This document shows, one piece after another, positions 16 through 30,438 of a stretch of 64,000 nucleotides of DNA (position 1 is the stretch's first letter; the number at the start of each line of letters is the position of its first letter). Origin of the DNA: an uncultured Phycisphaerales bacterium (lineage in GTDB: Bacteria > Planctomycetota > B15-G4 > CAYZWU01); assembly GCA_964542475.1 (NCBI GenBank), contig CAZIUL010000003.1, positions 19,826 through 83,825 on the forward strand, given 5' to 3'. The notes beneath the pieces were generated by a model that made no database searches, was not told the DNA's origin, and worked only from the letters and a program-made list of their open reading frames with translations. The position numbers and the translations under genes were made by a program.

Positions 16-1191
16 ATGAAAATACTCTGCATCTATCCCTTCCTGGACCTGGACTACAACAGCATTGCCCAGTCGATCCTTTACCTGGGCGCGCAGGGCC
101 ACGAGGTCAAGGTGATCACCGTGCGCAAAGCCGTGACCACCAAGGGCGGAATCGAGTCCGAGCCCGTGTCTGAATACCACAACGTTACCATTTACCGGCC
201 GTTCGAAAGCTTCAAGGAACAGTTCTCCGCTTCCGAAGAATGTGTGGGTAAAGCGCTCGCTTGTGTAGGTGAATTCAGGCCCGATCTTGTGTACTGCTCG
301 CTTCAGCACAACATGAAACTGGCGCGCAAGCTGTCCGCGCATTTTAAGGTACCCCTTGTGTTGCTGGTGGAGTTCGCCAGGGACCCGGCCCGGCTCCTTC
401 CATGGAAGGGGATGGGGCTCATGAAAAGGTGGGGCCTATCCTGGATCCTGACACCGGCGGCCAGGCTCTACTGGCGCAGCCTGGTCAACAGCTCCGATGC
501 GGTCATGGTAACCAACCCCGCTGACAAGCGGTTCATGGAAGAGATGGCCGGGCGCGGCAAGGACGCGACCTATGTGCCCTGGTGTACCCAGGTGCCCGAG
601 CTGGACCCGGGCAAGCGAATGCCTTGCACAGCTCTCCACGCGGGCGGTCTTATACGAATGAAAAACGCAGGAGCGCTCGCCCCTGCCATGGAAATCCTGC
701 TCAACAAAACGCCCACGGAACATTTCATTGTGGTGGGCCGCGGCAGGTACGGGAAAGCGGTGAGAGGCCTGGTAAAGCGGTACCCCGGCCGTGTAACCTA
801 TCATGAAGAACTCCCCAGGGAAAAAGTTCTGGAGCTCATAGCCGAAGCCGGCTACGCCTTTTTACCTGCAAGGGAAGGCGCTCTCGCTTTTATCGGTGAC
901 TGCTGGGGATTGAAGCTTCCCCTGGTAAGCCTTTACAACCCGGCCGGCCTGCTTGTGCCCGGCAAGGATGCGATTGTTACCAATGGAATGCGGGGTCTTG
1001 CCGATTCGGTAAACCGGCTTCTCGAGGATCCCCGCCTCGGGAACAGGATCGCTGACGCGGCCCATGAGCGTTATCTCGCCCAAAACACGGCTGAGAGTGT
1101 CGGTTCCCATTTCGAGAAGGTATACAAGCGCGTGCTCGAGAGGCGACCAAGCGGCCGCTCGGACAAAACGCTCGTTTGCAGCGCATCGTAG
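16..1191 (+). CDS. Glycosyltransferase, family 1 (GT4-like)
   Basis: 391 aa. The N-terminus (MKILCIYPF...) is Rossmann-like and the C-terminal half is typical of retaining GT-B glycosyltransferases. GC is normal for the host. Confidence 0.55.
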   Translation: MKILCIYPFLDLDYNSIAQSILYLGAQGHEVKVITVRKAVTTKGGIESEPVSEYHNVTIYRPFESFKEQFSASEECVGKALACVGEFRPDLVYCSLQHNMKLARKLSAHFKVPLVLLVEFARDPARLLPWKGMGLMKRWGLSWILTPAARLYWRSLVNSSDAVMVTNPADKRFMEEMAGRGKDATYVPWCTQVPELDPGKRMPCTALHAGGLIRMKNAGALAPAMEILLNKTPTEHFIVVGRGRYGKAVRGLVKRYPGRVTYHEELPREKVLELIAEAGYAFLPAREGALAFIGDCWGLKLPLVSLYNPAGLLVPGKDAIVTNGMRGLADSVNRLLEDPRLGNRIADAAHERYLAQNTAESVGSHFEKVYKRVLERRPSGRSDKTLVCSAS

Positions 1192-3110: not shown

Positions 3111-3154
3111 AAACATAACAATGCCATAAACACGGACCGCAAAAAGCTACACTG

Positions 3155-3535: not shown

Positions 3536-3915
3536 CCGCGCTTCGCACGGCCATTTCTTACATGTCATGGCGACCGTTAGCTGGACAAGAGAAATGGTTA
3601 ACAAGATCAAATCGTATACATCAAGAAACCCTTTGGTCTGCAAAACGCTGACTTGGTATGTACTTTTTTGTTTAATTTATCCACTGAGTCAAAATGTAAA
3701 TTCTATTCAAGGCCTTCAATTAGAAGCACGCCGCTGGAGTAGGGCTACCGACATATGAAACTGGCCAACATCTGCTTTCAGCAGACCAGCGCGTCTGTCA
3801 CTGCGGCAGCTGAAACCAATGTTGGGCTACAGCACCATTTACTTCTTAAGGTGCTGATATCAACAGAGTAACGGCGAATCAACCTTGCCATACACAATAA
3901 AGTAAATTTAGCCTC

Positions 3916-3944
3916 TTGTATAAATTTAGAATCTATGCTAAGTT
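3916..3944 (+). promoter_or_regulatory. Candidate sigma70-like promoter (TTGTAT-17 nt-TAAGTT) ~10 nt upstream of the ATPase ATG
   Basis: It lies in a 418-bp AT-rich spacer. The -35/-10-like hexamers have a 17-nt spacer. There is no SD before the ATG at 3954, which suggests a leaderless or non-SD start. Confidence 0.2.
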
Positions 3945-3953
3945 GCCCTTACT

Positions 3954-6339: not shown

Positions 6340-6395
6340 GCTTTCATGAAAGCCGGCAACAGCTCCCCGCTTTTGCGGCTTTTGAAAGGCTGTTC

Positions 6396-8868: not shown

Positions 8869-8884
8869 GGCTTTGAGCCACAGA

Positions 8885-8929
8885 AGGAGGAAGAAAGAAA
8901 GAGAACCACGGATGGACACGGATCTTTTT
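8885..8929 (-). repeat. Repeat family A, copy 2 (inverted orientation): two phased ATCCGT repeats plus a polypyrimidine tract
   Basis: The reverse complement reads aaaaagATCCGTgtccATCCGTggttctctttctttcttcctcc. It lies between the cobA/hemD stop and the phoD-like start. Its translation creates the artefactual RVHPWFSF peptides in the ORF track. Confidence 0.7.
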
Positions 8930-8986
8930 TACAGCGGCGGAGAAAGGCGAGGTAAACCAATAACAATTAACAAAGGGATTCATCCC

Positions 8987-11641: not shown

Positions 11642-13486
11642 TCAATTCGTTCTGACTTCCAGAATGAACCGCTCGGGATTGTCCGCAACGCTGATCAGCT
11701 TGAATGCAACCGTGATCTCATCGTTTAGCTGTCTCGAGTATTCATGGAGAACGGCGCTCTCCCCGGTATTCCCGAAAAACGATTGCGCCCCCGAAGAGTA
11801 GCTCCGGCCGTTTTGCCTGATGCCCACCTCGGTGCGCTCGAACATGTACCTTCCGTCTCCTGCCGCCCCGGATATGTCAGGAGTCACCCGCAGGCACTCT
11901 ACCTTGAGGTCTCCGTTTTTACCTTTGGCGAAAAAACACACCTGTTCGTTCAGGCGGATCTCCATCTTCTCCGTCTTTGCTCCCGGCGTGAGCTCGGCAA
12001 TGCCCATCTCCTCGAAAAGGCCGGGCAGCTCCTCCACGGGCGGATCCGCAAGGCTTTCGTCACCCAGCTTCTTTGCCAGCTCCCGGATTTTTTTCTGGAG
12101 CTCCTGGTACTCCTTTAAAGTATAAAGCAGAGCCGCGGCTCTGGTCAGGGCCTTGCCTGCCTTCAGATCGTCCTTGAGCTGTTTGTGATAGTAATCGGCC
12201 AGGGCCAGCAGCAGTGCGGGATCGTCCGGAGGATTCTCTTCGATCAGCTTCATCACCCTTTCTTTTTGGCTTGTGGTCATGTTGTTGAAGAAAACGATCA
12301 GCTCCTTTGCCCGGGCTCCGGACTCGAAAAAACGTTCAATGGCCTCCACGATCTCGTCGCGCGAAAAGCTGTGGCAATAGACCATGCAGTAATCCGATGC
12401 GCCTTTTTCGGGCTGCTCTGTTGACTCCATTCCATTCACTATCTGATCTATGTCTATCTTGAAGGACCGGGGCGGATCAGGCCTCTTGTAGATGTACAGC
12501 TCCCGATTGCCCGAGGACATTTGAAAGACGCGCTTTTTGTCCACGCTCTGGTCCTGCCATCCCTTTTTTACGAGCTCTTTCTCGATTTCCGCGAACAGCT
12601 CCACAGGATCGCGGGACTCCTGAAACCTCCAGATCGCACGGTTGTGCGCGAACAGGCCCGCGCCCGATCCGACCGGTTCGATCCCTTCAATCCCGGCCCC
12701 GGCAAACGGAAGGTCCGCGTGCTCTGCGGCCTCTCCGAAAAAACAGGCCGGAAGATCCGGGAGCGTTCCAAGATTCCGGCTCCACTCTTTTGTCTTTTCT
12801 TCCAGGCTGCCCCACAACGAACCGGTAATGGATTCGGCTGCCGGTTTGTATTTAGCACCTGCTGAAAGCAGGCCTATGTACGTTCCATCGTGGTCGACAA
12901 CGGCTGTCATGTGCACATTTGCAACCGGCGGTGAGGACGGCGAAACTCTCACATACGCGGAATCCCACGGCGCGGGCCCGGCATCGAGACTGACCTGTGC
13001 CTCGAGCTTGAACCCCCCGGGCAAGCGGAACTCCTCGATGTCGAGGAGATCCAGCGTAATGACAAGCTCCGGCATGAGCTCGCAGGTCTCGGGAACCTGG
13101 CCGTACGGGACATAAACCGCCTCATCCACGAAAGGAAGCCCTGCAACCTTTTGGAGGACCATCCGCCCGATCTTCCGGACAAGGCAATGATCGGATGCGC
13201 TCATCACCCAGACACGCCGGGCCGCAAAACAGCCCCACTGCCCGCGGCTCGTTGTGTGGCTTGTTGACGAAAGAGAGTTGACAGCAGAGCTCACAACAGC
13301 ATGAAGGTTAAAACCGGAGCCTTCCTCGCCAAGCGCAACTTTCATCCGGCCCTCTTCATCACGTTTCATTTTCAACATGGAATCAACAGAAGATCCCATG
13401 GGCATGTAGGTAATGAAAACCAACAATCCAAGAAGCCCCAAGAGGATAAATAACAGTTTCCTGAACACGCTTTTCTTTTTTTTCAT
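11642..13486 (-). CDS. Hypothetical signal-anchored/secreted protein (614 aa)
   Basis: It has an N-terminal hydrophobic segment (LLFILLGLLGLLVFI) and no recognisable catalytic motif. Confidence 0.45.
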   Translation of the reverse strand: MKKKKSVFRKLLFILLGLLGLLVFITYMPMGSSVDSMLKMKRDEEGRMKVALGEEGSGFNLHAVVSSAVNSLSSTSHTTSRGQWGCFAARRVWVMSASDHCLVRKIGRMVLQKVAGLPFVDEAVYVPYGQVPETCELMPELVITLDLLDIEEFRLPGGFKLEAQVSLDAGPAPWDSAYVRVSPSSPPVANVHMTAVVDHDGTYIGLLSAGAKYKPAAESITGSLWGSLEEKTKEWSRNLGTLPDLPACFFGEAAEHADLPFAGAGIEGIEPVGSGAGLFAHNRAIWRFQESRDPVELFAEIEKELVKKGWQDQSVDKKRVFQMSSGNRELYIYKRPDPPRSFKIDIDQIVNGMESTEQPEKGASDYCMVYCHSFSRDEIVEAIERFFESGARAKELIVFFNNMTTSQKERVMKLIEENPPDDPALLLALADYYHKQLKDDLKAGKALTRAAALLYTLKEYQELQKKIRELAKKLGDESLADPPVEELPGLFEEMGIAELTPGAKTEKMEIRLNEQVCFFAKGKNGDLKVECLRVTPDISGAAGDGRYMFERTEVGIRQNGRSYSSGAQSFFGNTGESAVLHEYSRQLNDEITVAFKLISVADNPERFILEVRTN

Positions 13487-13805: not shown

Positions 13806-15128
13806 TTGACGCCGGAAGGCTTTTACCTCCGGTCTGTGCGGTCTTTACGATACGTATTCAAAAGAAGCGAGGAAACCATGCTTGTAGAGAGGGAGCGCAT
13901 TCTTTCGTGGCTCAAGGGGCTCAAGCTCCCTGATTCTTCGGCAGGAACATACCGCCACAGCGCGTCATCCGACGCCACTGCTTTCAGCAGCTGTTTCGCT
14001 GTCTATATCATGGCCATGCTCGATGCCCTGGACGAACTTCCCGAAAAGGAACGTAAGTCCTGGTCCGACAGGTTAATAAGCCTTCAAAACCCTCAAACAG
14101 GCCTTTTTCGCGCCGATGACCTTCCGGCAGATTCAAACTCCGGAGGCCACGATGAAACATATGTCTCGTGGCAGCTCACAACCTTCTGCCTGTCAGCGCT
14201 GGCTGAGCTGGATCGAGCAATGCCGCGGCGAATCGCCCGGCTAAGCCGCTGGCATGACCGGGCTCGGGTTCGCGCCTGGCTGGAAAGCCTCAATTGGGAA
14301 GACCCGTGGTGCGCGGGAAACATGGTCATGTTCCTCTGCATCATGCTTTTGTGGGACGCGGAGCGGTTAGGCGAAGAAGCGTCCGGAAAAGCAGTGGATC
14401 ACATCCTTGACTGGCATGACGAGTTTCAGAGGCCGGACAGCGGTTTCTGGGGAAAGGGAACGCGTTCGGACTACATCGAAGGCATGGGCGGGGCGCTTCA
14501 TCAGTTTTTGATCTATTCTTTTGTGGGCAGGCCGATACCCCGGCACAAAAAAATCATCGACCGTATGCTTCAGCTCCAGCAGCGTGACGGCTTGTTCTAT
14601 CCCGGCATGGGCGGAGACGGCTGCCTGGATTACGACGCGGTAAATATCCTGGCCATGCTCCTTCACCAAAGCGACTATCGCCAAGGGGAGATCAAGGCAA
14701 CGCTGGAGAGGTCGCTCGAAGGAATGAAGAGCGTTGCCTGCCCACAGGGCGGCTTTGTATGGAACACGCCTGAAAGCTTTCGCTGGTACGACTGGGCAGG
14801 GCATGCTTTCTCCTTCCTGCGCCACCAAAGCCTGTATCACCTGTACTATAGCAGCCGCAGCCTTCTCTCGGCGCGCCTGCACAGGGGACGCCCAAGGATG
14901 CCCCGAGGATGGACCCGCACGGGCATCCCAGCCCAAGAGCCGGATCTTTTCGCGACCTTCATGCGCATGCAAGCGGCCTTTTTATCCCTGGAGGTTGTGG
15001 ACAACCATCATCCGGATCCGGTCGGCAGCTTCTTGAGAGCGCCCGGCCTTGGATGGCATTTTTCATCACCGCCGTTGAACACCACCGCACAGAAGGAGGA
15101 AGCTCTTGTTAGAGCAGGCCGTACGTGA
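13806..15128 (+). CDS. Prenyltransferase/squalene-oxidase-repeat (alpha/alpha-toroid) family protein
   Basis: Repeated Q-x-x-(D/G)-G-x-(F/W)-like motifs are present (LQNPQTGLF, QRPDSGFWG, LQQRDGLFYPGMGGDG, CPQGGFVWN). The true start may be the internal Met at ~13878. Confidence 0.4.
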   Translation: MTPEGFYLRSVRSLRYVFKRSEETMLVERERILSWLKGLKLPDSSAGTYRHSASSDATAFSSCFAVYIMAMLDALDELPEKERKSWSDRLISLQNPQTGLFRADDLPADSNSGGHDETYVSWQLTTFCLSALAELDRAMPRRIARLSRWHDRARVRAWLESLNWEDPWCAGNMVMFLCIMLLWDAERLGEEASGKAVDHILDWHDEFQRPDSGFWGKGTRSDYIEGMGGALHQFLIYSFVGRPIPRHKKIIDRMLQLQQRDGLFYPGMGGDGCLDYDAVNILAMLLHQSDYRQGEIKATLERSLEGMKSVACPQGGFVWNTPESFRWYDWAGHAFSFLRHQSLYHLYYSSRSLLSARLHRGRPRMPRGWTRTGIPAQEPDLFATFMRMQAAFLSLEVVDNHHPDPVGSFLRAPGLGWHFSSPPLNTTAQKEEALVRAGRT

Positions 15129-16194
15129 AACACAAAACGGTTGCGATCAAGCCGGTCTTTACGCATGCCCGGATTGCGGGGGAAGCCTGGACAGCCGGGA
15201 GCGAAACTTGCGCTGCCAAGGCTGCCAGGCGGAATGGCGGGTCAACATCAATAACATCCCCTCATTTACGCGGCATGCCCTTTCGTGGACCCCCATGGAA
15301 CAGGAAACCCTGCGGCGCATCGTGGAGGCGGCTGAAAAAGGGCAGGACTGGAAAGACGCGGTGTCAGAGCACGGCAGGGAGATATCCGGCTACACGAAAC
15401 GATACATCTTGGAAGAAGACAGGGCGGACTGGCTCTTTCTGCTGCCTGTGCGGCGCAGCTGGCGGGTGCTGGACGTGGGCAGCGGGTGGGGAAGCGTGTC
15501 CATTCCGGTCAGCCGCTGGGTAGGCGAAATCTTTTGCGCCGATGCCACCGAAATCAACTGCAGGTTCCTCAAGGCCCGGGCCGAACAGGAAGGCATCGAT
15601 AACCTCCATGTCTTCAACGCCAACCCATTGGATTTCCCCGCCTATCCCTTCCCGAACGGCTCTTTCGACCTGATCGTGCTGAACGGCGTCCTGGAGTGGA
15701 CAGGCAACGCGGACCGGGACACGCCTGTTTACGACCTTCAGGTCAATGCGCTGGCCGCGCTTAAGAAGCTGCTTGCGCCGGGCGGCTGCCTGTATATCGG
15801 CATCGAGAACCGGTTCGCCTACGGAGCGCTGCTGGGCCGGGCCATGCACCACGAGCTCCCCTTCACCGGGCTCATGCCCCGGCCCCTGGCAAACGCGTGG
15901 ATGAAGCTTTTCAAAAGGAGGCCCCACCGCACCTATATCCACGGCATGAAAGGGTACAGAAAGCTTCTCGCAAAAGCCGGGCTTGGAAACGTCGAGTTTT
16001 ACCTGCCGCGCACGAGCTACAGGGACCCATACTGGCTCATCCCCGGGGACACGGACCAGGGCGTGAAGATCTGGGCATCGAGGCTTGCCAAGCCCCGGAC
16101 CGTTACCCGCCGCCTGATACGCTGGTGGGCCGAGAGGCTCCCCATCCGGGGAATCTGGCCGTGTTATTCCATGGTCTGCAGGAAGGAGGGCTGA
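15106..16194 (+). CDS. Class I SAM-dependent methyltransferase with an N-terminal zinc-ribbon
   Basis: VLDVGSGWG is the SAM motif I, with an acidic motif II (DLIVLNGVLEW). The N-terminus has CPDCGG...CQGC. Confidence 0.6.
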   Translation: MLEQAVRETQNGCDQAGLYACPDCGGSLDSRERNLRCQGCQAEWRVNINNIPSFTRHALSWTPMEQETLRRIVEAAEKGQDWKDAVSEHGREISGYTKRYILEEDRADWLFLLPVRRSWRVLDVGSGWGSVSIPVSRWVGEIFCADATEINCRFLKARAEQEGIDNLHVFNANPLDFPAYPFPNGSFDLIVLNGVLEWTGNADRDTPVYDLQVNALAALKKLLAPGGCLYIGIENRFAYGALLGRAMHHELPFTGLMPRPLANAWMKLFKRRPHRTYIHGMKGYRKLLAKAGLGNVEFYLPRTSYRDPYWLIPGDTDQGVKIWASRLAKPRTVTRRLIRWWAERLPIRGIWPCYSMVCRKEG

Positions 16195-16195
16195 C

Positions 16196-17209
16196 ATGAT
16201 ACCTTTCCTTCTCGACCACATTCACACGAACTTCGACAGCCTCTTCCCGGGTAAGAAAGAGCCCCCTTCCCTCGTGCCCATAAAAGTGCCTGGAAAAACC
16301 GGGGCGGGCTCAAAGGTGAACGTCCTCGTGTTCGACGGAAAGGACGAACAGATGCTGGCTGCATGCGCATTTCCCCGTTCACCCGGGTCTGACGAAAGCA
16401 TCGCACAAGAGGCTGATAACCTTCTTAAGTTCCGGGAGGCGCTGAAACACGGCCCGGCCGCGGGCACGGTTCCCAGGGTCCTGTTCGACGGCGAAATCGA
16501 GGATGTGCGTGTCCTGATCCAGGAAGGAAAACCAGGGATCTCGCTCCAGCAGATCCTGGCTGCGGGCGCACCATACCGGAAACTGTTCATGATCTGCGGA
16601 GCCTGGCTTGCCGAGCTTCACGCCGCCACCACAACAGCCCGCGTGAAGGTTGCAAAGGAGCATCTCGATGCATGGCTTGTTCAACCCCTCGAGACCCTGA
16701 TCGAGAAGAACGCTTTTTTCGACGAAGCCCGGGCTGATAAAATGCGGCATTGGACAGCCGAAGCGGCCCGCGTCGTGAGCGGCCGGGAAATACCGATCTG
16801 CGGCCAGCACGGCGACTTCAACTCTCACAACATCCTGATCCACAGCCGCGGAATCGCTGTTATAGACTGGGAGGACGCGCTGTTTGAGTGCCCGCCGTTT
16901 CTGGACCTGAACCAGTTCATCATCTCAGGCGCTCATCAGCTCGACGCAAGCCTGAGCCCGTCCGAGAGCATGCGGCGTTTCGCGCTTTCCCGGGGCGCTT
17001 ACAGGAACACGGCACATGAAACGGCGTCCGCTTACTGCAAAAGGCTCGGGATCCACCCCGCCTTCCCCATGATGATGGCCCCGGCATGCATGATACATAT
17101 GGCGAACCTCTACACGGAAACACACAGGGCGCAAAAAACAGCGGCCGCTCACTGGATCGAACGGCTCGAAGTTTTCATCGAGAGGTGCGGCACAGGAGAA
17201 GCGTGGTGA
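16196..17209 (+). CDS. Aminoglycoside-phosphotransferase-like (APH/choline-kinase fold) phosphotransferase
   Basis: HGDFNSHNILI is the Brenner catalytic motif, and IDWEDA is the DxE/DFG-equivalent. Confidence 0.6.
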   Translation: MIPFLLDHIHTNFDSLFPGKKEPPSLVPIKVPGKTGAGSKVNVLVFDGKDEQMLAACAFPRSPGSDESIAQEADNLLKFREALKHGPAAGTVPRVLFDGEIEDVRVLIQEGKPGISLQQILAAGAPYRKLFMICGAWLAELHAATTTARVKVAKEHLDAWLVQPLETLIEKNAFFDEARADKMRHWTAEAARVVSGREIPICGQHGDFNSHNILIHSRGIAVIDWEDALFECPPFLDLNQFIISGAHQLDASLSPSESMRRFALSRGAYRNTAHETASAYCKRLGIHPAFPMMMAPACMIHMANLYTETHRAQKTAAAHWIERLEVFIERCGTGEAW

Positions 17210-17214
17210 AAAAA

Positions 17215-18729
17215 ATGAAGGCACCGTCCATGGAGCCCGATACCCTTCAAGGAAAGGGAAGAAAGAGCATCCCGTACGCTGCAATGGGTGTGCTCCTGGC
17301 CCGCGGTTTGAACTTCTTCTGCATCCTTTACATCGTGCACAACCTCTCCACGACCGACTGGGCGATCTACAGCCTGTTCCTGGGCATACTGGTTTACCTG
17401 AGCTTCTTCAGCAACCTTGGCATGTCCGGCACGCTCCAGAGGTTCATCCCGGAGTTCATGGCGGGAGGACACGCCGCTTCAGCAAGACGGGCCGCGGTGC
17501 GCGCTTTCGCGATTAGAAACATATTGATCCTGGCGCTTCTGACCGCAAGCCTGCTTCTTTTCAAGCCCCTGGGTGCTTTTCTCAATGTGTCCGAGGAGTA
17601 CTTCACTCCCTACGTAATATTCGCCCTGGCCATATTCAGCTTTGCCGTCACCGAAGTGCTGACCGTATCGATGAACGCGGTGTTTTATCACAAGTGGGTG
17701 GCCTTGTCCCAGGTCGCGCTCTTCTTGTGCAAAGCTTTGGGGCTGGTATGGATCTTCCGGTCCGGGTACGGCCTGATCGGCGTGGTTTCCGTGGAAGCAG
17801 GCTCCACAGCCCTGTCGATGATCATCCTCTTTGCGGTCTTCCTGGTCCGGATGCCGGGCAGGAGCCTGAAGGATGACGGTGCCCTGAAAAAACGGCTTCC
17901 TCGCATGGCGAGGTTCACCGGCTTCAACCTCGTGTTCGGCACAGGAAACCTGTTTCTCGAGCCTGCCACGGCCCTGATCATAATCTCTCACTTTCTCGAC
18001 AAGGTCGAGCTGGGGCTTTATGCGTTTGCCGTGCGCATGAACGTGCTTGCATTCAACGTTCTACCGACAATGGTGCTGCAGAGTGTGGTGCGGCCCCTGT
18101 TCTATACGAAATATTCCGAAAAGAGAGACTACGCGGTCCTGGACCGGATGTTCAGGACGCTTGTGCACCTCAACGTTCTCGTTCTCGCCCCCATGTTCGC
18201 GGCGTTTTTCCTGTTTGGAGAAAGCCTGGTCAGGATGTTGAAGCCGGAAATGTGCCCCGCCTTCACCCTGCTGCTGATTTTAGCCTTTTTCAACCTGCTG
18301 CGCCTGACAGAGCTTCCCGCCGACCTTGTGCTTCAATCACTTGAGCGCGTGGACATTCACTGCTACTCAAGGATCTTCTCCCTGGCGGGAGTGATCGGAA
18401 GCGTGCTGACCATAGAGCTCTGGGGAACAGCCGGGGTTGCCGTGATCTTCGGGCTCGGCATGCTCGCAAAAAACCTGTTCATGTACTTGTTCGCAAAAAG
18501 GTACGCGAAGCTCGGAATCGGGTGGGGCTCCATCGCGCGGGTGCTGATAAACACGGGCCTTGCCGCTGCCTGCTCCCTGCCCTTCAGAGGCGACGGGGCG
18601 GGCGCTTTCCTCGGGATCGGTGTCTTCTGCGCAGCCTATCTCGCGGTGTCCGTAATCCACCGGACCTTCAGCGCCGAACAGAGAACCGCCCTGAAATCTA
18701 TTGCACCGCGTTTGAGTTTCATGTTGTGA
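17215..18729 (+). CDS. wzx: Polysaccharide flippase (Wzx / MOP-superfamily polysaccharide biosynthesis protein)
   Basis: It has ~12 predicted hydrophobic helices and a Polysacc_synt-like N-terminus. I chose the start at MKAPS (17215); the ORF-track start is upstream inside the preceding gene. Confidence 0.6.
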   Translation: MKAPSMEPDTLQGKGRKSIPYAAMGVLLARGLNFFCILYIVHNLSTTDWAIYSLFLGILVYLSFFSNLGMSGTLQRFIPEFMAGGHAASARRAAVRAFAIRNILILALLTASLLLFKPLGAFLNVSEEYFTPYVIFALAIFSFAVTEVLTVSMNAVFYHKWVALSQVALFLCKALGLVWIFRSGYGLIGVVSVEAGSTALSMIILFAVFLVRMPGRSLKDDGALKKRLPRMARFTGFNLVFGTGNLFLEPATALIIISHFLDKVELGLYAFAVRMNVLAFNVLPTMVLQSVVRPLFYTKYSEKRDYAVLDRMFRTLVHLNVLVLAPMFAAFFLFGESLVRMLKPEMCPAFTLLLILAFFNLLRLTELPADLVLQSLERVDIHCYSRIFSLAGVIGSVLTIELWGTAGVAVIFGLGMLAKNLFMYLFAKRYAKLGIGWGSIARVLINTGLAAACSLPFRGDGAGAFLGIGVFCAAYLAVSVIHRTFSAEQRTALKSIAPRLSFML

Positions 18730-18739
18730 AGGGAAACAG

Positions 18740-19885
18740 ATGCGCATCCTCTACCTGAACGATGTTGTGGCTGACAGGGACGTCCACGTGACCAGCCGCT
18801 ATCAGATCAGCAGAAGCCTGGAAAAGCTGGGGCACAAGGTCAGGTGCACGCTTTTCTTCGAGGAAAAAATACCTGATGTCGCGGGTCTTCCCCTGGCGCG
18901 TTTCGTTCGGATGAAAGGCGGAAAGCGGTACTCGCCGCTCTTCAAGATGTGGAGCGCGGCAGGGGCGATCCTTTTCAGCAGGGCGGACGTGGTGCTGTAC
19001 GAGCCGAGCTTCTGGCCGGCGGCGGCAGTGAAAACAGCGCTGAGCTTCGGCCGCAAGCGCATGATCATGGACATCAGGAGCGTGCCCGTGGATGTGGAAT
19101 CAGGGCTGAAGGGGAAGCTTAGAGCGCTGCACTACCGCCTTGCGCTGAAAGCGGCGGCCCGGCTTTCACACGGCCTCACCGTGATCACTCCCGGCCTTCG
19201 GACCGAGGTCTGCTCCGCGCTCGGCCTGAACGAGTCAAGAGTGGGCACATGGAGCTCCGGGGTTGACATGAAACATTTCCTTTCCAAAAGGCCCGCGGGA
19301 ACACCTTCAGGGAACGGCTTCGATCTCTGCGCGGCCTACCACGGTGTTATCAGCCGCACGCGCGGTCTGCAGGAGGTGGTTCCCGCGATCAGGATGCTGA
19401 AGGATGAGGGTATAAAGGTCCGTCTCCTCCTGATAGGCGATGGACCGGCCGGAAAAGAGCTTGCGGCGCTTGCCTCCTCCGAGGGAGTGGAAGAACAGGT
19501 GGTTTTCGCTGGAAAGGTCCCTTACGACGATGTTCCCGGAATGATCGATCAATGCGATATCGGAGTCGTGCCGCTTCCGGATTGCCAGGGCTGGCGGGTC
19601 TCGAGCCCGCTGAAGCTCATGGAGTACAGCGCCATGGCAAGACCCGTTATCGTAAGCCCTATTGAAGCTCACAAGCAGGTGCTCGGCACCTCGAACGGCG
19701 CCTTTTACCTGGACGATGTGTCCGGCTGGAGCATTGCCGCCGCCCTGAAAACCGCGCTCTCGAAAAAAGACTCGCTTGCCGGTCTTGGCCTGGAAAACCG
19801 GCGGATCGTGGAGCAAGGCTACTCGTGGGATGCGCAGGCGGAGAAGCTGCAGGATTACATGTTGAGAATGAAAGCTACCCGATGA
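18740..19885 (+). CDS. Glycosyltransferase family 1
   Basis: 381 aa with GT-B architecture. The C-terminal region (VPYDDVPGMIDQCDIGVVP...) is typical of GT4. Confidence 0.65.
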   Translation: MRILYLNDVVADRDVHVTSRYQISRSLEKLGHKVRCTLFFEEKIPDVAGLPLARFVRMKGGKRYSPLFKMWSAAGAILFSRADVVLYEPSFWPAAAVKTALSFGRKRMIMDIRSVPVDVESGLKGKLRALHYRLALKAAARLSHGLTVITPGLRTEVCSALGLNESRVGTWSSGVDMKHFLSKRPAGTPSGNGFDLCAAYHGVISRTRGLQEVVPAIRMLKDEGIKVRLLLIGDGPAGKELAALASSEGVEEQVVFAGKVPYDDVPGMIDQCDIGVVPLPDCQGWRVSSPLKLMEYSAMARPVIVSPIEAHKQVLGTSNGAFYLDDVSGWSIAAALKTALSKKDSLAGLGLENRRIVEQGYSWDAQAEKLQDYMLRMKATR

Positions 19886-21321
19886 TCACAGAACAGAAAA
19901 GGTTCCTTGCGGTTGCAGGGCTTTCGCTCGCGGCGGTTGTGCTTGCCGTCGGGCTTTTCGTGACGCCGCTTGCGAGCCTGGGGGTTTTCGCGCTCGTGTT
20001 CATGACAGCCGCGGGCCTCATCACAGCCCTTGCCTTGGTCAGGCCGATCTGGGTGCTTTACGCCGCCGTGGCGCTCCTTCCGGTCTGGAGCTCCTTCGAA
20101 ATCGGCAAGATCAACTTCTCGCCGTTCGAGCTCATGGTCATGTTTCTCTTTTTTGTGTGCCTTTTGCGGTGGTTGACCAGCGGGCACATCCAGGCCGCTC
20201 TTTTTTCCATGCCCAATCCGTGGATATGGCTCGTTGTTGCGTCGGCGTTCGCCGGCGCCCTGGCAGGGGCTCCCGATACGATAGAAGCGATTAACATCAT
20301 GAGAAAATCGCTGCTGCTCCCACTCGCCTTTTACATCGTGCTGGTCGCGCTGGTAAAAAAACACGAAACCGTTATCCGCCTGCTATGGGTGTTCGTGCTC
20401 GCGAACTCGGTCATCGCCGCTTATTCCGTGTACGTCTACTACCAGCTTTCCAGGCAGTTCAGGGCCGGATATTCTCTTACCAGCTCGGTCTTCCTTGGGA
20501 TTTCATGCACATGCGGGATAATTATCTGCTATAAGCTGCGCGGTGATACGGGGAGGTGGAAACGCCGGATGCTGGAGCTGCTTCTGCTCACCCAGTTCAT
20601 GTGCCTGATACTCACGTTCACCAGGGTCGCCATAATCTGCCTGCTGGCAATGCCTGTTATCTACTGGCTGCTCTTCAAAACGAAACACAGGCGTGTGCTT
20701 GCCGTTTCCGCCTGCGTGGTTGTCTCTCTCCTTCTCTTCGGAATGTGCTTTTCCATGGACATGGATTTCGTATCAATCGTATACGGTTCCGGCTCCAGGG
20801 AGGCGGAAAGGGTTGTGAATCCGGCCCAGTACCAGGACGACCTTTTTCTCAGGTTCGAGAACTGGTCTCTTGCTTTCGATGTTTTTCTGGACAGCCCGCT
20901 TTTCGGCCATGGTTTTTATCCGTTTTACAAGCTGGCTGACACGTGGCGGACCACCCGCCTCAGCCATCCTCACTCCATCATCTTCAACCTGCTTGTATCG
21001 AGCGGGCTTGTCGGGGCCATCGCGTTTCTTCTCTTTTTTGGAGCAGCGCTGCGCATGATCTGGCCCGCGTGCTTCGAGCGCGCCAGGGAATCCTCCCTTC
21101 AGAGGATCCTTTTTCTTTGCCTCTGGTGCATGGTGCTGGATGGTTTGATGAACGGGATCTTCATCTGGGTTCCAATTGCGTCGCTCTTCTTTTTCTTTCT
21201 GGGGCTCTGCCTGTCAATGAGCGTCATCGTTGCGGGAAAGCCCTTTACAAAGCTCGTTGAGAATCGAGAAACTCATGAAACCGATACGGATAGTGACGGT
21301 TGCCCCTACCCCGCACCTTGA
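19883..21321 (+). CDS. wzy: Wzy-like O-antigen polymerase/ligase family membrane protein
   Basis: It has ~11-12 hydrophobic segments with a large loop near the C-terminus. The ATG overlaps the preceding stop (ATGA), which suggests translational coupling. Confidence 0.5.
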
Positions 21322-22507
21322 CGGTCCGGGAAAGGTGATCCTCGGCATATTCAAGCACTTGGACAGGAGCCGGTTCGAGCCGGGCTTCGTTTCGATCATC
21401 AAGCGTCCCGAATCCGAGTGTTACCCTTCCATTGCAGGCGCGCTCGAGGATATGAAGATACCTTTCGAAAGCCTGGACATCAAAAAACCCGCGGACCTTC
21501 TGTCTCCTGTACCCATAGCCTCGTTTCTGAAACGGTTTCGCGCCGACGCGGTACACACCCACCTTGTCCGGGGAAACATCAACGGAAGGGTGGCCGCGCG
21601 CATGGCCGGTATTCGGTCCGTTATCAGCACGGTCCATTCCTCGAAGCAATGGATGGAGTCCCATCCGCTGCTCGAGTTCAGCGCCGGTGTGCTGGACAGG
21701 CTGACCGTCAGGCTTGCATCCGTTGTAGTGGCTGTTTCAGAGGAGGTGAAACAAAGCGTTGCAAGGCTCGGAGGATACAAAAAAAACAGCATCCTGGTGA
21801 TACCAAACGGCACCGACACCGAACGTTTCACTCCGTCGCGGTCGGGCCGCACAAAGGCAAGGCGGGAGATTGGAGTTTCGGAAAGCGATTTCGTGGTGGG
21901 ATTCGCGGGGAGGATCGATGTGGAAAAGAACCCTTTTCTCATGCTCGACGTGATGAAGCGCGTCTTCGAAAAGAGGGGCGCGGCAAAGCTCGTTATCGCG
22001 GGAGAGGGACGGTTGAGCGGCGAGCTGGCGGCCCTGGTTCGCAAATCCGGTCTTTCAGAAAAGGTGATCATGTTGGGGCAGCGCGCCGACATCCCGTCAC
22101 TGCTTTCCGGTTTCGATTCCTTCTTCATGCCGTCGAGATGGGAAGGCCATCCTCTTGCGCTCTGCGAGGCGATGTCAACCGGGCTTCCCTGCGTCGCAAC
22201 CCCGGTGGGGGGAACCTCGCTGATGGTCAGGCACGGCGCCAACGGCTTTCTCGTACCCGAAGATGATCGTGACGGAATGGTCGATGCTTTCCTGACGCTG
22301 ATCGACAACCCTGAAACGGCCGCAGCCGTGGGAAAAGAGGCGCGGGAAACCATACAAACCGGCTTTTCCGAGGAAGGCATGTCAAACAGGTACCAGGAGC
22401 TCTACAGCGTGTTTTGCAACCCGGCCGGTGAGGGGGGTACTAAAAAACGCGAACCGGTCGGCATCGGCACGGCAAAAGGGCGGAAAGTTGGGGCGGGAAA
22501 GGAGTAA
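21275..22507 (+). CDS. Glycosyltransferase family 1
   Basis: MKPIRIVTV at the N-terminus; RWEGHPLALCEAMSTGLPCVATPVGG is the typical GT4 E-x7-E region. Confidence 0.7.
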   Translation: MKPIRIVTVAPTPHLDGPGKVILGIFKHLDRSRFEPGFVSIIKRPESECYPSIAGALEDMKIPFESLDIKKPADLLSPVPIASFLKRFRADAVHTHLVRGNINGRVAARMAGIRSVISTVHSSKQWMESHPLLEFSAGVLDRLTVRLASVVVAVSEEVKQSVARLGGYKKNSILVIPNGTDTERFTPSRSGRTKARREIGVSESDFVVGFAGRIDVEKNPFLMLDVMKRVFEKRGAAKLVIAGEGRLSGELAALVRKSGLSEKVIMLGQRADIPSLLSGFDSFFMPSRWEGHPLALCEAMSTGLPCVATPVGGTSLMVRHGANGFLVPEDDRDGMVDAFLTLIDNPETAAAVGKEARETIQTGFSEEGMSNRYQELYSVFCNPAGEGGTKKREPVGIGTAKGRKVGAGKE

Positions 22508-22512
22508 CGCCC

Positions 22513-23457
22513 ATGAAGACAGCGGAAAAACAGAAATCCTCCCAGTTGGTTAACAGGGACAAGCTCCCCGGAACAGGGCCCGATATCTCGGTTGTGGTCG
22601 TGAGCTACAACGTGAAAGCGCTCCTGGCGGATTGCCTGAACTCGATCAGGGGATCGGGGGGAAACCTCGCTGTGGAGGTTTTCGTGGTGGACAATGCCTC
22701 GGATGACGGCTCTCCTTCCATGATAAAGAAACGGTTTCCCGAGTGCACCCTGATCGAGAGCCGAAAAAACCTCGGGTTCAGCGGGGCCAACAACCTCGGG
22801 CTCGCCCGCGCCCGGGGCAGGTATGTTCTTCTGCTGAATCCGGACACGGTTATCGAGCCGGACGTGTTCGAGAAGATGGCCGCTTACATGGATGCGAACC
22901 CCGAGACGGGCATGGTCACGTGCAGGCTGCTTACCGAAGACGGATCGCTCGATCTCGCGTGCAGGCGAAGCTTCCCGAGCCTGTGGGACGGTTTCTGCCG
23001 GGCAAGCGGTTTGAGCCGGCTCCTGCCCGTGAGCAGGCTGTTTTCGAAATACAACCTCACCTATCTCGACGCGGAAGAGATGTGCGAGGTCGAGGCGGTG
23101 AACGGGGCTTTCATGTTCGTTCGAAAGGAAGCGCTTCTGGAGGTCGGCCAGCTCGACGAGGATTACTTCATGTACATCGAAGATCTCGACTGGTGTTTCC
23201 GTTTCAGGAAAGCTGGGTGGAAGATCGCGTACAACCCTGAAGCCACGACCGTGCATCTGAAGGGACAGAGCGGGAAAAAACGGTCCGCCGACATGATCAA
23301 CAGGCTTTTCGAATCCACGGGGATCTTCTACAGGAAGCACTATTTCGCAGACATGAGCGCGCCCCACCGCATCCTGGTTCTTTTCTGTCTGGGCCTTTGG
23401 AAACGTGCGACCCTCATCAAGAACAGCCTCCGGAAAAACAAGCGAACCCGGCCCTGA
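22513..23457 (+). CDS. Glycosyltransferase family 2 (rhamnosyltransferase-like)
   Basis: Motifs present: ISVVVVSYN, VVDNASDDGS, LLNPDTVIEPD. Confidence 0.75.
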   Translation: MKTAEKQKSSQLVNRDKLPGTGPDISVVVVSYNVKALLADCLNSIRGSGGNLAVEVFVVDNASDDGSPSMIKKRFPECTLIESRKNLGFSGANNLGLARARGRYVLLLNPDTVIEPDVFEKMAAYMDANPETGMVTCRLLTEDGSLDLACRRSFPSLWDGFCRASGLSRLLPVSRLFSKYNLTYLDAEEMCEVEAVNGAFMFVRKEALLEVGQLDEDYFMYIEDLDWCFRFRKAGWKIAYNPEATTVHLKGQSGKKRSADMINRLFESTGIFYRKHYFADMSAPHRILVLFCLGLWKRATLIKNSLRKNKRTRP

Positions 23458-23617: not shown

Positions 23618-26600
23618 TCACATCTCCCCGACGGCGGTGAGAAAGAACGGATTTCCGCTTTCACAGGTGAAGTTTTTCATACCGTGTTTACGGGGTGTTG
23701 GGGTTACGAAACCGATCCTCATGTAGCTGGTCCGCGTGGGATCATTCGAAAGCTCTCTCGTTTCCACAACCACTTCTCCGAAGCACGGAAAATCCACGGG
23801 GTACGGCCTGTCCATGCTCTGTATCCGGTGGTCGTCCTGGAAAACAACGCGCCAGTTCTCGTCGCAGAAATGCACGATGGGGTGATAGTTTTCGAACATG
23901 CGGTCATTAAAAAGCCAGAAGTACTTTATCGACCAGGACGCGTCCTTGCCGGGCTTTGCGTTTTCCTCCCTCGAAAACGTCAGCCCCAGGAGCTTCACCT
24001 TTCCGCTGAAGCTGACGCTGCAGGGAATCTCCGGGGTGAGCATGTCCAGGCGCTTTTCAAACGGCATGCCTTCATCCCCGGGCCCACCGGCCTGCTCCGT
24101 ACCCATCCCCTGCTTTTCGAGACGAACAAGCCTTTTCAGCGATTCCAGGTGCATGGGCACGATGCTTACGGCCTTGCCGTAGGCATCCCATGCCTTTGCC
24201 ATCTCACCCTTCTTTTCGTATCCCCTCCCAAGATAATGCCAAAGCAGATGGCGCTGGCGCCAGGACGCTCCCATTTCCGCGTCACCCGACATGATCCCCT
24301 TCAATTTGCTCAGCCCCTCATCCACCCGGCCAGTAAGAACTAGGCCGGCACCGCGAACCAGCCCTGCGGCGAGAAGGTCCCTGCCATCCTTCAGGCGGAG
24401 CGAATCGAGCGTGTCCAGGATCCTTTCAAGGGTTTCGTTATCCAGGGAAGTGCTGTTGATGACCAGCCTGAACAACAGGTCGATTGTGCGGTTGCATGGA
24501 GGAGCGATATCCGCCAAGCCCGGAAGAGACGCGAGGTCGGCCGCTTCGATCAACAGCTCCTGGTTTTTGGGAAAATCGTTCAAGAGGTCGAGGCATATTT
24601 CCAACGATTCCTCGTGCCTGCCGGATTCCCTCAGCATCCTGGCCCTCGCGAGCGTTTTTGCCGCGCTTCCTTGCGCGTACTCGCTGTAGCTGGACACCTC
24701 GCGCGTGCGCTCGGCCCACTTCCCAAGGATAGCCAGGACACAGCTCCGTTTGCTTGACAGGTCGAGCAACACATCATCGCGGGCCTTTTCTTTCACACGT
24801 AAGCTTTGCCCTGCGAAAGCCGTCCCCTCGACATCACCGGCAACAATGCCCGGCATCCGAGCGACCAATGCGTCGGTGTTTCCGGCCCCGCCCCCTGATC
24901 CCTCAGGCGCCAGCAGCAGCTTTTTCGAAACATCCAGGCATGCAAGCACATCCTCCCAGTCCCCTGCTTCCCAGAGCTCCCGGATCAGCTTGTCGTAGGT
25001 AGGTATCGTCTTGGGCGTCACCTTGATCAGCGCTTCTCTGCCTCCCATCGCGGCAGGCACCAGAGCGTACACCTTCTCGGCATATTTCGAGTCGGAAAGC
25101 ATGGCGCGCCTGAAGCAGGAAACCGCAAAGCTCATCGCCTTGCCGCTGGGATCGCTCTGCCCCGAGGCAAAGCTCTCAGCGGTAAAAATCTTGCCTGCGT
25201 CGAAGAGCACGGCAGGCTTGCCGGGCGCAAGCACAATCGCGCTTTCAGCCTCTTTCATCGCCTCTTCGGTCGAACTCGACCCGTCGCCCGCTGCGCTGTT
25301 TGCCGCAACGAGCTGGGCCAGCACACTGGAGAGGTTGAGGTGATAACGCGCAATGTGGGGAGAAAGGGATATCGCTTCCCTCAAACACTCTTCAGCCTTT
25401 GTAAGCGCCGGCTTGCATTCGGCTCCCATGCGGGATTTAAGGCTTTCTGTCAGCGAGGCCACGACTTTTTCGAAACCGGCCGGGTCGCTCGTTTCGATGT
25501 CGTCACCAAGCAGGCCCCGGGTTGTTTTCACGGCCTTGTCCCGAAGGACGCTTTCAGCCGCCTTGACGCATGCGATCGAGCTGTAGAAACAGTATTCCGC
25601 GTTATGCGGGTCCAGCTCGATGGCCTTTTGCAGGCTCTCGCGCGGGCACGCATCCCCGCCATCGCCGGGCTCCAGAAAATGGTAGTCGCTGACCCTGCCC
25701 CTGAACTCCTCGCCGGCAAGAAAGCGGTTGAAATGGATATCCGCGAGGCCGGTGCCGGCGGCCCGGGCAGCGGGAAACCAGAACGCGGCCGCAGCGAGAA
25801 TAACCATTGCGCAGCCAAGAACCGGCGACCGGACCGGGATGTCGAAATACCTCGGCCTCTTCATTGTCCTGCCGTTCAAGGGAATGGTTGCCGACACACT
25901 CAAAAGCCCCAGGATCACCGTGAAGATGATCCCGTTGGATGTGATCTTGTATAGGTTGTAGTCGAAAAAGCTGTGAAGCAGCATCGAGCAGACGCCCATC
26001 ATGGAACCGATTGCCACCCAGCGGCAAAACCGATCCTGCCTGCGCGTGGTCCTTCTGAAAAGCAGGATCATTACCCAGGCAATTCCCGCGACCACGGCTG
26101 TTCCGCCGACTACGCCGAGCTCGCAAAAAACCTGAAGCCAGTCGTTGTGCAGGTAATCCGCGTACCTGTCGCCGAACCGTATGGACTGGAACCCCTCGAA
26201 CGCGCCCTCAAAAGTTCCAAGCCCCGTGCCTAGCAGGGGAAAGCTGCTTATCATGGTCAACGCCGATTGCCAGAGGTCGATCCTGTCCGCCATGGAGGAT
26301 GCCTGGCCCGAGGCTGCGTCTTCGATGCTGCTGATGACCATGCCTGCGCCAATGCCCGTGGCGATGCAGATTATCAGGGCAACGAACATCAAAAGCGCCA
26401 ACGTGTACTTTCTGAACCCGGAGGCCATGGAGAGCACAATCGCGAAGCCGGCCCAGGAGAGCACCGCGCAAACGATGCCCGCGCGGGAAAGCGAGAAAAA
26501 GACGGCAACCGTTACAAGCACCAGGCTGATGCCCAGAATGACCTGCCGGTGCGTTCCCGCGGCTGAAAACGCGTTCACGATCCTGGCCCTCATGGATGGG

Positions 26601-27355
26601 CTCCGGTTGGCTTTCGGGCTCGCCGCAATGAACAGGCCGAGCAGAAGAGGAACGACCATTCCGAGAAGGCCCGCAAAGTGGTTCTTGTTGTGAAAGGTGC
26701 CTGTAACCGCTGATAGATGGTATTGCCTCTCGTTCCAGAACACATTACGGCCGCCGGAAAACTGCTCCGCAAAACCGTAGAGCGCCTCGAACGTTCCAAC
26801 CGCGACGAGCGCAAGAATCAAGGCCACCACCTGGCCTTTGCTCCGGACCGTGTTCACCACAACAAAGAAGATCATGGCAAGCATGGCCCAGTGAGTCAGC
26901 GTGCCCAGGGACGCGTGCATGTCCACTGAAACCGTTCTTGCCTCGCCGCTTGCCGGATAGCCGGGGACCGTCATCTCGTAGAGCGCTCCGGTTGAAGGGG
27001 AGACCGCCTTCAAGAGGTCGGGCGCCATCGGCAAAAGCTGGATCCCGATCAACAGCAGCACGGCCGCCATGAGAAACCACATTGGAGTCCTGAACACCCT
27101 TATCCTTTTGGCGCGTACGCTTTTTATGAGCCAGAGCCCAACCATGGCCAGGGAAAGCAGAAAAGCGAGGCTCTTCGCCCAGGGGGCTGCCGATCCGAAA
27201 GGCATGGGGGACAGTACGATCAATGCGATGAGCAGGAACCCTATGACGAAATCGAAAAGGCCGAGTCGTTCGTGCTGTTGCATGCTGTGTCTTCCTGTTG
27301 ACTGTTTTGTTTTGTTTGTGATCCGGTTTTCTTTGCCTACCGGTCCCGCTGTCAA
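23618..27355 (-). CDS. O-antigen ligase-domain membrane protein fused to a large C-terminal TPR-repeat domain (1245 aa)
   Basis: The N-terminal ~500 aa are polytopic and Wzy_C-like. The C-terminal ~700 aa contain TPR-like helical repeats. The start ATG overlaps the cpsB stop (ATGA). Confidence 0.55.
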   Translation of the reverse strand: MTAGPVGKENRITNKTKQSTGRHSMQQHERLGLFDFVIGFLLIALIVLSPMPFGSAAPWAKSLAFLLSLAMVGLWLIKSVRAKRIRVFRTPMWFLMAAVLLLIGIQLLPMAPDLLKAVSPSTGALYEMTVPGYPASGEARTVSVDMHASLGTLTHWAMLAMIFFVVVNTVRSKGQVVALILALVAVGTFEALYGFAEQFSGGRNVFWNERQYHLSAVTGTFHNKNHFAGLLGMVVPLLLGLFIAASPKANRSPSMRARIVNAFSAAGTHRQVILGISLVLVTVAVFFSLSRAGIVCAVLSWAGFAIVLSMASGFRKYTLALLMFVALIICIATGIGAGMVISSIEDAASGQASSMADRIDLWQSALTMISSFPLLGTGLGTFEGAFEGFQSIRFGDRYADYLHNDWLQVFCELGVVGGTAVVAGIAWVMILLFRRTTRRQDRFCRWVAIGSMMGVCSMLLHSFFDYNLYKITSNGIIFTVILGLLSVSATIPLNGRTMKRPRYFDIPVRSPVLGCAMVILAAAAFWFPAARAAGTGLADIHFNRFLAGEEFRGRVSDYHFLEPGDGGDACPRESLQKAIELDPHNAEYCFYSSIACVKAAESVLRDKAVKTTRGLLGDDIETSDPAGFEKVVASLTESLKSRMGAECKPALTKAEECLREAISLSPHIARYHLNLSSVLAQLVAANSAAGDGSSSTEEAMKEAESAIVLAPGKPAVLFDAGKIFTAESFASGQSDPSGKAMSFAVSCFRRAMLSDSKYAEKVYALVPAAMGGREALIKVTPKTIPTYDKLIRELWEAGDWEDVLACLDVSKKLLLAPEGSGGGAGNTDALVARMPGIVAGDVEGTAFAGQSLRVKEKARDDVLLDLSSKRSCVLAILGKWAERTREVSSYSEYAQGSAAKTLARARMLRESGRHEESLEICLDLLNDFPKNQELLIEAADLASLPGLADIAPPCNRTIDLLFRLVINSTSLDNETLERILDTLDSLRLKDGRDLLAAGLVRGAGLVLTGRVDEGLSKLKGIMSGDAEMGASWRQRHLLWHYLGRGYEKKGEMAKAWDAYGKAVSIVPMHLESLKRLVRLEKQGMGTEQAGGPGDEGMPFEKRLDMLTPEIPCSVSFSGKVKLLGLTFSREENAKPGKDASWSIKYFWLFNDRMFENYHPIVHFCDENWRVVFQDDHRIQSMDRPYPVDFPCFGEVVVETRELSNDPTRTSYMRIGFVTPTPRKHGMKNFTCESGNPFFLTAVGEM

Positions 27356-30366: not shown

Positions 30367-30438
30367 TCTCTCTTCACTGCTGCAGTTCCTTCTTGCAAGT
30401 ATAACCGTCGGGCGGTTGGCTTTGCCCGTTGCATGCCG

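Follow-up and report, generated by a model that had tools for sequence, protein, structure and literature searches.

An uncultured Phycisphaerales bacterium carries a Wzx/Wzy-type exopolysaccharide cluster with an unusual conserved candidate decoration module and an uncharacterised accessory fold

Introduction

In Escherichia coli O9a, the bifunctional methyltransferase-kinase WbdD caps the O antigen with a methyl phosphate on the glycan (PMC3482155). Enzymes of both kinds are encoded as separate genes in a 64,000-nucleotide stretch of DNA from an uncultured Phycisphaerales bacterium (GenBank assembly GCA_964542475.1, contig CAZIUL010000003.1, positions 19,826 to 83,825; hereafter “the window”). 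There, an S-adenosylmethionine (SAM)-dependent methyltransferase (MT) and a small-molecule kinase follow a helical-repeat protein, referred to as the toroid protein, at the head of an exopolysaccharide (EPS) operon. As in WbdD, a SAM methyltransferase and an ATP-dependent kinase occur together in a glycan pathway, at the cytoplasmic face. The MT precedes the kinase in both systems, as domains in WbdD and as translationally coupled separate genes in the window. Unlike WbdD, whose kinase is Src-like, the window encodes a kinase of the APH/choline-kinase fold, and the coiled-coil ruler is absent. WbdD acts in an ABC-transporter pathway, whereas the cluster in the window has no ABC transporter and encodes Wzx and Wzy instead; a modification would therefore be expected on every repeat unit and not at the chain end. 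Single-sequence and profile searches of PDB sequences with the kinase and the MT returned no WbdD and, because there is no detectable sequence similarity, the link is drawn by analogy only.

Other described systems share single features with the locus. The beta subunits of protein prenyltransferases (farnesyltransferase (FTase), GGTase-I, and RabGGTase) and the class II terpene cyclases have the same PFTB/QW-type repeat toroid as the toroid protein, at only 10-17% identity. In contrast to these enzymes, the toroid protein has no alpha subunit, its conserved positions appear to be different ones, and its genomic context and fusions are exclusively with glycan transferases. LicA of the lic pathway and other APH-fold kinases (maltokinase Pep2, NahK, and aminopropanol kinase) are 10-16% identical to the kinase, and LicB, LicC, and LicD are lacking here. 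WaaP and WaaY, the heptose kinases of the lipopolysaccharide core, are similar in that they belong to the protein-kinase-like superfamily and phosphorylate a sugar in a lipid-linked glycan at the cytoplasmic face. The mycobacterial methylmannose polysaccharide cluster (ManT, MeT1, MeT3, and MmpH) includes a glycosidase-related hydrolase, MmpH, whereas the toroid protein groups with prenyltransferases; unlike the window locus, the mycobacterial cluster has no kinase and no Wzx/Wzy. Literature searches on prenyltransferase-like proteins in polysaccharide clusters and on methyl phosphate in Wzy-dependent EPS found nothing relevant, and no paper was found that describes the toroid family or this gene combination.

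Organization of the operon

The toroid, MT, and kinase genes span 13878-17209 on the + strand and are the first three in a run of eight genes, in the order toroid, MT, kinase, Wzx, GT4a, Wzy, GT4b, and GT2, where GT denotes glycosyltransferase (Table 1). A preliminary reading made by a model from the letters alone, without database searches (the sequence-only reading), had described three enzyme genes ahead of Wzx, GT, and Wzy genes in the same orientation, and all three were found at that place. Its calls for the three folds, an alpha/alpha toroid (PF00432), a class I SAM methyltransferase with a zinc ribbon, and an APH-like kinase (PF01636), were also right. The end it gave for the trio, 17209, stands; its start at 13806 is a TTG of the longest open reading frame (ORF) only, and the real start is the ATG at 13878. 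This ATG has a GAGGAA site just upstream and yields the 416-aa protein that is present in public databases. The MT gene starts with the TTG at 15106, 6 nt past an AAGGAGG sequence, and overlaps the toroid stop by 23 nt. The ATG of the kinase gene (16196) lies one base beyond the MT stop and is preceded by AGGAGG, and the most likely start of the Wzx gene, the GTG at 17206, overlaps the kinase stop. Terminator-like sites numbered 19, against 12.9 ± 3.7 expected, which is not clearly more than chance. Because the junctions at toroid/MT, MT/kinase, and kinase/Wzx overlap or are 1 nt long and carry Shine-Dalgarno sites, and because there is no excess of terminators, the three genes are best explained as co-transcribed accessory genes of a Wzx/Wzy-dependent EPS operon, as far as can be judged from sequence. 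The assignment of the locus to the Wzx/Wzy-type EPS clusters is based on gene content, since Wzx, Wzy, glycosyltransferases, and a Wza/Wzc export pair on the minus strand are all present.

The JGI gene call of the MT at related loci (L010-L012) is 299 aa long and thereby loses the conserved N-terminal zinc ribbon. Conservation among orthologues supports the 362-aa form with its TTG start and strong Shine-Dalgarno site.

Conservation of the gene neighbourhood

Close toroid loci and 25 further metagenomic loci (labelled L001 and so on) were compared using BLAST and hidden Markov models. The close toroid subfamily comprises nine clusters among 5.8 billion proteins, and all recovered contexts were Wzx/Wzy clusters. 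The kinase subfamily is likewise a separate, very rare clade of about seven clusters; kinase homologues with usable context were all found in such EPS clusters. The view of the sequence-only reading that the gene combination is not a standard Wzx/Wzy cassette is thus confirmed, and the combination is rare as well. A scan of species-representative genomes returned only two Anaerolineae metagenome-assembled genomes (MAGs).

In this comparative genomics of the cassette, which the same reading had suggested, a contiguous MT-kinase-GT4x-Wzx block recurred in three other metagenomic lineages (L003, L006, and L023). The MT and kinase genes are also adjacent in L017, and the pair is conserved in four lineages. 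Toroid, GT4a, and Wzy genes stand beside the block in every locus long enough to show them, with GT4a orthologues directly downstream of the toroid gene in L006, L007, and L021. The gene order differs between lineages, being toroid-MT-kinase-GT4x-Wzx in L003 and MT-kinase-GT4x-Wzx-toroid-GT4a-Wzy in L006, a difference better explained by selection on co-occurrence than by recent shared ancestry. The toroid gene is therefore a lead gene in the window, as had been noted, but not as a conserved feature, as it comes after Wzx in relatives such as L006 and the conserved block is MT-kinase-GT4x-Wzx.

GT4x, a divergent glycosyltransferase and the fourth partner, had been missed in the sequence-only reading. 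It is 48.5% identical to its counterpart in L003 (4143-5300) and 32% to that in L006 (7351-8487), and was also identified in L023. The GT4x orthologue directly follows the kinase gene in related loci, whereas in the window GT4x lies 12.6 kb upstream of the operon, separated from it by unrelated genes (a Ser/Thr protein kinase, an AAA ATPase, haem/sirohaem genes, and a PhoD-like protein). This displacement points to a rearrangement of the cluster in the window.

The kinase or MT might alternatively have belonged to an unrelated neighbouring pathway. This reading is rejected, as both genes show translational coupling to the genes beside them and synteny with EPS genes in independent lineages. 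We consider it very probable that the toroid protein, the MT, and the kinase are functional parts of the EPS pathway. The best explanation for the MT, the kinase, and the displaced GT4x is that they form a conserved decoration module.

Methyltransferase and kinase

Several class I SAM methyltransferase models in Pfam matched the MT (PF13649, E 9e-11; PF08241, E 8e-10), and the SAM-binding motif D-[VI]-G-S-G-W-G is retained in the orthologue alignment. Its N-terminal CPDC...CQGC ribbon is kept in orthologues (Y19, C21, P22, C24, C37, and W44) and resembles Trm112/UPF0434 chains in the profile search of the PDB (2kpi, E 0.008). The other PDB profile matches were generic class I methyltransferases, including a D-glucose O-methyltransferase (E 8.5e-6), and the protein ends in a conserved extension of ~90 aa. 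The kinase matched the APH family PF01636 (51.6 bits, E 1.4e-13). Its catalytic motifs are intact, with an HGDxxxxN loop (H205-G-D207-x4-N212) and a D224-W-E motif with the Mg-binding Asp, and with 337 aa it has no extension. No transmembrane or signal segments were found in the toroid protein, the MT, or the kinase, and all three are located in the cytoplasm.

The nearest folds of the kinase agree with a role of the pair in precursor supply. The kinase would then phosphorylate a free small molecule (choline, ethanolamine, an amino-alcohol, or the anomeric hydroxyl of a sugar) and the MT would methylate a soluble intermediate, e.g., from phosphoethanolamine to phosphocholine, followed by activation of the product and its transfer to the polymer, which would then carry a phospho-alcohol or a sugar-1-phosphate. 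The LicC/LicD or nucleotidyltransferase partners of such a route are absent from every locus examined: no LicC/LicD-type or nucleotidyltransferase gene occurs among the window ORFs scanned, and LicC/LicD were likewise not found in L003 and L006. Precursor supply is thus improbable, and direct phosphorylation and methylation of the repeat unit is considered probable.

Fold and conserved residues of the toroid protein

The toroid protein matched the Prenyltrans family PF00432 with 35.1 bits (cutoff 26.5) and has QW-like repeats at Q70..G75.F77, Q184..G189.W191, Q234..G238.F240, and G291-G292-F293. An AF2 model gave a helical toroid (pLDDT 77.8, pTM 0.83), for which Foldseek ranked FTase beta on top, with low TM scores. 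A single-sequence search of PDB sequences gave no match. With a profile of 101 toroid sequences, RabGGTase beta was matched at E 7.3e-9, in alignments at the level of repeats that are unusable for mapping Zn ligands, and class II cyclases at ~1e-4. By these matches, the protein is classed as a soluble cytoplasmic alpha/alpha toroid of the prenyltransferase-beta/terpene-cyclase repeat superfamily, in which it appears to form an uncharacterised, glycan-pathway-specific branch.

Toroids of this kind could also be carbohydrate-active enzymes (glycoside hydrolase, transglycosidase, lyase, or sugar epimerase) that trim, proofread, or epimerise the glycan, comparable to BcsZ and AlgL of other EPS systems, MmpH, and the AGE/cellobiose 2-epimerase group. 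The profile homology is to prenyltransferase and terpene-cyclase repeats, whereas the best glycosidase, YteR, reached only E 0.1. Among the 101 relatives, 75 matched PF00432 and none a glycoside hydrolase or lyase model of Pfam. The protein has no signal peptide, whereas BcsZ and AlgL are periplasmic, and its invariant Cys and His (see below) are atypical of such glycosidases. A carbohydrate-active toroid is accordingly quite unlikely, and its simplest form, the plain glycoside hydrolase that the sequence-only reading had put forward as an outcome against its own view, is rejected.

Across the 101 stand-alone members, H208 and C249 are invariant, and N148, W191, D251, D253, and R363 are at least 90% conserved. 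In the secondary structure of the model, H208, C249, D251, D253, N148, and R363 map to the N-terminal ends of successive inner helices. These ends form the mouth of the central cavity in toroid enzymes. Because of this position, the conserved polar ring looks like an active or ligand-binding site in the predicted structure.

The invariant His, the invariant Cys, and the conserved Asp are the residue types of the FTase Zn site, and their placement at the N-terminal ends of adjacent inner helices, together with prenyltransferase beta subunits as best fold and profile matches, would suit a true prenyl- or alkyl-transferring or cyclising enzyme that uses such a Zn site and adds an isoprenoid substituent to the polymer. 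The Zn site of FTase consists of D297 and C299 (Asp-x-Cys on one inner helix) with H362 on the next. In the toroid protein, Cys249 is followed by Asp251/Asp253, and His208 lies on the preceding inner helix, so that the arrangement is shifted by one repeat relative to FTase. In the repeat-based alignment, conservation appears to fall on residues other than those matching the FTase ligands, and the D-G-C of the window protein (D247-G-C249) is not kept in relatives. At the cyclase-equivalent place, the conserved motif is G-G-x-G-C-x-D-x-D-A, and the DxDD(TA) general-acid motif of class II cyclases is absent. No partner gene for a helical-hairpin alpha subunit was found in the window operon or the syntenic loci, no isoprenoid diphosphate synthase gene in any locus, and the fusions (see below) are with methyl-, glycosyl-, and acyltransferases and include no isoprenoid enzymes. 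To our knowledge, there is no precedent for prenylated bacterial exopolysaccharides. Thus, the toroid protein falls within the prenyltransferase/terpene-cyclase structural superfamily yet, as it lacks both an alpha subunit and a DxDD motif and appears not to conserve the Zn ligand positions, would not belong to it by function, and prenyl transfer is very unlikely.

A cassette for a ribosomally synthesized and post-translationally modified peptide (class V lanthipeptide-like), with the kinase as LxmK, the toroid protein as a LanC-like cyclase, the MT as a tailoring enzyme, and the EPS genes adjacent by chance, is effectively refuted by synteny and the lack of a precursor gene and was rejected as having next to no probability: there is no conserved precursor-peptide ORF (the toroid gene starts 5 nt after the giant Wzy_C-TPR gene in L003/L004), all loci are EPS clusters with these genes interleaved with wzx and GT genes in varying order, choline kinases and prenyltransferases score clearly above lanthipeptide enzymes, and a LanC-like Cys-Cys-His pattern is missing.

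The wider toroid family

When 1.84 billion representatives were searched with the profile, 1,413 matched at E<=1e-3 and 341 at E<=1e-30. Among the top 158 family proteins, 29 are at least 480 aa long. Of these 29, all 20 that were scanned are multi-domain proteins that bear methyltransferase and/or GT2/GT4 domains, including giants of ~1,650 aa with the layout MT-toroid-GT2-GT2-GT4. The same layout is found in L036, where a single protein of 1716 aa (6152-11302) has MT, toroid, GT2, GT2, and GT4 domains in this order; L036 may be a close relative of the three proteins with this layout among the 20 (P0072, P0135, and P0153). The domains of the L036 protein suggest a glycan polymerase contained in one polypeptide, with a modifying part at its head. 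Neither the 20 scanned fusions nor L036 contain a kinase domain. No ABC transporter was found within 6 kb of L036, and we do not claim that the giants reside in ABC-transporter O-antigen loci. The fused methyltransferase domains were also considered as orthologues of the window MT, which was ruled out, as there was a single weak match at 22.6% identity.

Distant relatives fused to hexapeptide-repeat acyltransferase domains were found in Rhizobium lusitanum p_1 (L045, 7618-9942) and on a plasmid of Haloarcula sp. GH36 (L046, 260-1897), both of which keep Cys249 and Asp253. The Rhizobium gene lies near FemAB-like, MFS, and carbamoyltransferase genes, and the Haloarcula protein is annotated merely as “acyltransferase”. 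For stand-alone members, the identifiable neighbours are glycosyltransferases (GT2/GT4) and, in L009, a sulfotransferase. The latter (2797-3612) belongs to an Anaerolineales MAG and accompanies the toroid protein and GTs. A radical SAM/SPASM protein (11843-12853) is encoded in the toroid-containing cluster L023.

As read from these neighbours and fusions, the common denominator of toroid contexts is group-transfer enzymes acting on glycans. The toroid protein is not specific to the trio with MT and kinase. It is one member of a larger family whose proteins occur beside many glycan transferases or are fused with them, in most cases with no kinase.

A proposed route for repeat-unit decoration

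On balance, we slightly favour an arrangement of two units within the EPS operon, namely a decoration module for the repeat unit (MT, kinase, and GT4x) and a toroid protein of the glycan pathway. We infer the substrates, the order of reactions, the methyl phosphate product, and the role of the toroid protein as follows. At the cytoplasmic face, GT4x would probably add a sugar to the undecaprenyl-diphosphate-linked repeat unit, after which the kinase would probably phosphorylate a hydroxyl of the lipid-linked glycan. The target of the MT would then probably be the phosphate just added, which would become a methyl phosphate like that formed by WbdD in E. coli O9a, or else a neighbouring hydroxyl. 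Wzx would flip the decorated unit. The toroid protein would most likely bind the lipid-linked glycan or its polyprenyl diphosphate carrier and either present the substrate to the transferases or perform a further, possibly metal-dependent, step; a binding or adaptor role and a catalytic role appear roughly even. The specific product, methyl phosphate, is suggested by the WbdD analogy and is tentative. The sequence-only reading had proposed a repeat unit that is methylated and/or phosphorylated, or carries a phospho-alcohol or lipid-like substituent; as a chemical outcome this stays conjectural, and for the phospho-alcohol route the LicC/LicD or nucleotidyltransferase genes are not in the window.

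Several observations weigh against the proposed arrangement. Most toroid-containing loci have neither kinase nor MT. The association is asymmetric, as the MT-kinase pair is always accompanied by the toroid gene, but many toroid loci lack the pair (L001/L020, L009, and L025-L042). Because most of its loci lack both enzymes, the toroid protein is regarded as independent of them. For the putative metal site, the conserved residues appear not to be at the FTase ligand positions, and Arg takes the place of His208 in the distant relatives with fused acyltransferase domains (L045/L046). Finally, the window ORFs scanned did not include a priming phosphoglycosyltransferase.

A broader hypothesis, which we put forward as speculation, is that the toroid family (~1,400 representative clusters, with invariant His and Cys) is an unrecognised module of bacterial and archaeal glycan assembly, in which a prenyltransferase fold would have been co-opted for holding the polyprenyl-diphosphate carrier or the glycan. 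It would either catalyse a new metal-dependent reaction or present its ligand to methyl-, glycosyl-, acyl-, sulfo-, and phosphotransferases. In the window, it would work alongside a split, non-homologous analogue of WbdD that adds methyl phosphate to each repeat unit of the polymer made by Wzy.

Surrounding genes

The positions of the operon genes, GT4x, and the export genes are given in Table 1. A second operon on the minus strand (Wza, Wzc, CpsB-type phosphatase, and a 1245-aa Wzy_C-TPR protein) converges on the toroid operon.

Table 1. Positions of the operon genes and associated export and glycosyltransferase genes in the window
Feature	Position	Strand	Remarks
GT4x, divergent GT4-like glycosyltransferase	16..1191	+	weak Pfam GT4 models; orthology to L003/L006/L023 genes
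Toroid protein	13878..15128	+	416 aa; PF00432 match
Class I SAM-dependent methyltransferase	15106..16194	+	362 aa; Pfam, orthologue alignment, PDB profile matches
APH/choline-kinase-fold small-molecule kinase	16196..17209	+	337 aa; catalytic motifs intact
Wzx-type flippase (Polysacc_synt)	~17206..18729	+	10 transmembrane-like segments; start probably GTG 17206
GT4a glycosyltransferase	18740..19885	+	Pfam; synteny with L006, L007, L021
Wzy-type polymerase (Wzy_C)	~19882..21321	+	start probably ATG 19882, overlaps GT4a stop; longest ORF from 19825
GT4b glycosyltransferase	~21275..22507	+	start uncertain; longest ORF from 21230
GT2 glycosyltransferase	22513..23457	+	last gene of + strand operon
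Giant Wzy_C + TPR membrane protein	23618..27355	-	up to 1245 aa; convergent with operon
CpsB-type PHP phosphatase	27352-28137	-	export/regulation gene
Wzc-type tyrosine kinase co-polymerase	28134-30536	-	export/regulation gene
Wza-type exporter	30439-31671	-	start uncertain

In the giant Wzy_C-TPR protein, ~9 transmembrane-like segments and a Wzy_C (O-antigen ligase-like) domain are combined with a long TPR region. It is Wzy-like in addition to the Wzy of the operon, and ligase, second polymerase, and scaffold are candidate roles. Its orthologues are encoded directly upstream of the toroid gene in L003/L004, L001, and L020, and a shorter 820-aa form is present in L006/L017. Just past wza, a 656-aa protein (32975-34945, +) has a galactokinase signature and the N- and C-terminal GHMP kinase domains and is unusually long for a GHMP sugar kinase; it may supply sugar-1-phosphate for the polymer.

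A 614-aa protein (11642-13486, -) with one N-terminal hydrophobic segment is encoded divergently from the toroid operon across a 391-bp spacer; it had no match in Pfam or NCBIfam and no homologue in related loci. A 918-aa protein (8849-11605, +) has as its sole match a PhoD-like phosphatase domain in the central residues 421-718. Three minus-strand ORFs of 826, 1043, and 862 aa (37091-39571, 39558-42689, and 45615-48203) had no Pfam match at E<=0.001. The GC content drops to 0.44-0.46 at 2001-4000, against ~0.58 elsewhere in the window; this stretch, which covers the gene for the Ser/Thr kinase and the first part of that for the AAA ATPase, may be foreign DNA.

Implications

What is new in the window is that a Wzx/Wzy cluster combines a conserved but unusual candidate module for decoration with an accessory fold that is uncharacterised. 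The charge, antigenicity, and physical behaviour of bacterial surface polymers are determined by decorations such as phosphate and methyl groups. The decoration enzymes of Wzx/Wzy pathways are poorly catalogued, and the locus offers a compact, conserved candidate module consisting of GT4x, the kinase, and the MT. Pfam labels the toroid protein a prenyltransferase, whereas members of its family occur exclusively alongside glycan transferases, in many cases as fusions with them, so annotation pipelines will mislabel its members as isoprenoid enzymes. Once found, the function of the toroid protein would be assigned to more than 1,000 protein clusters and could show how soluble modifying enzymes find lipid-linked glycans.

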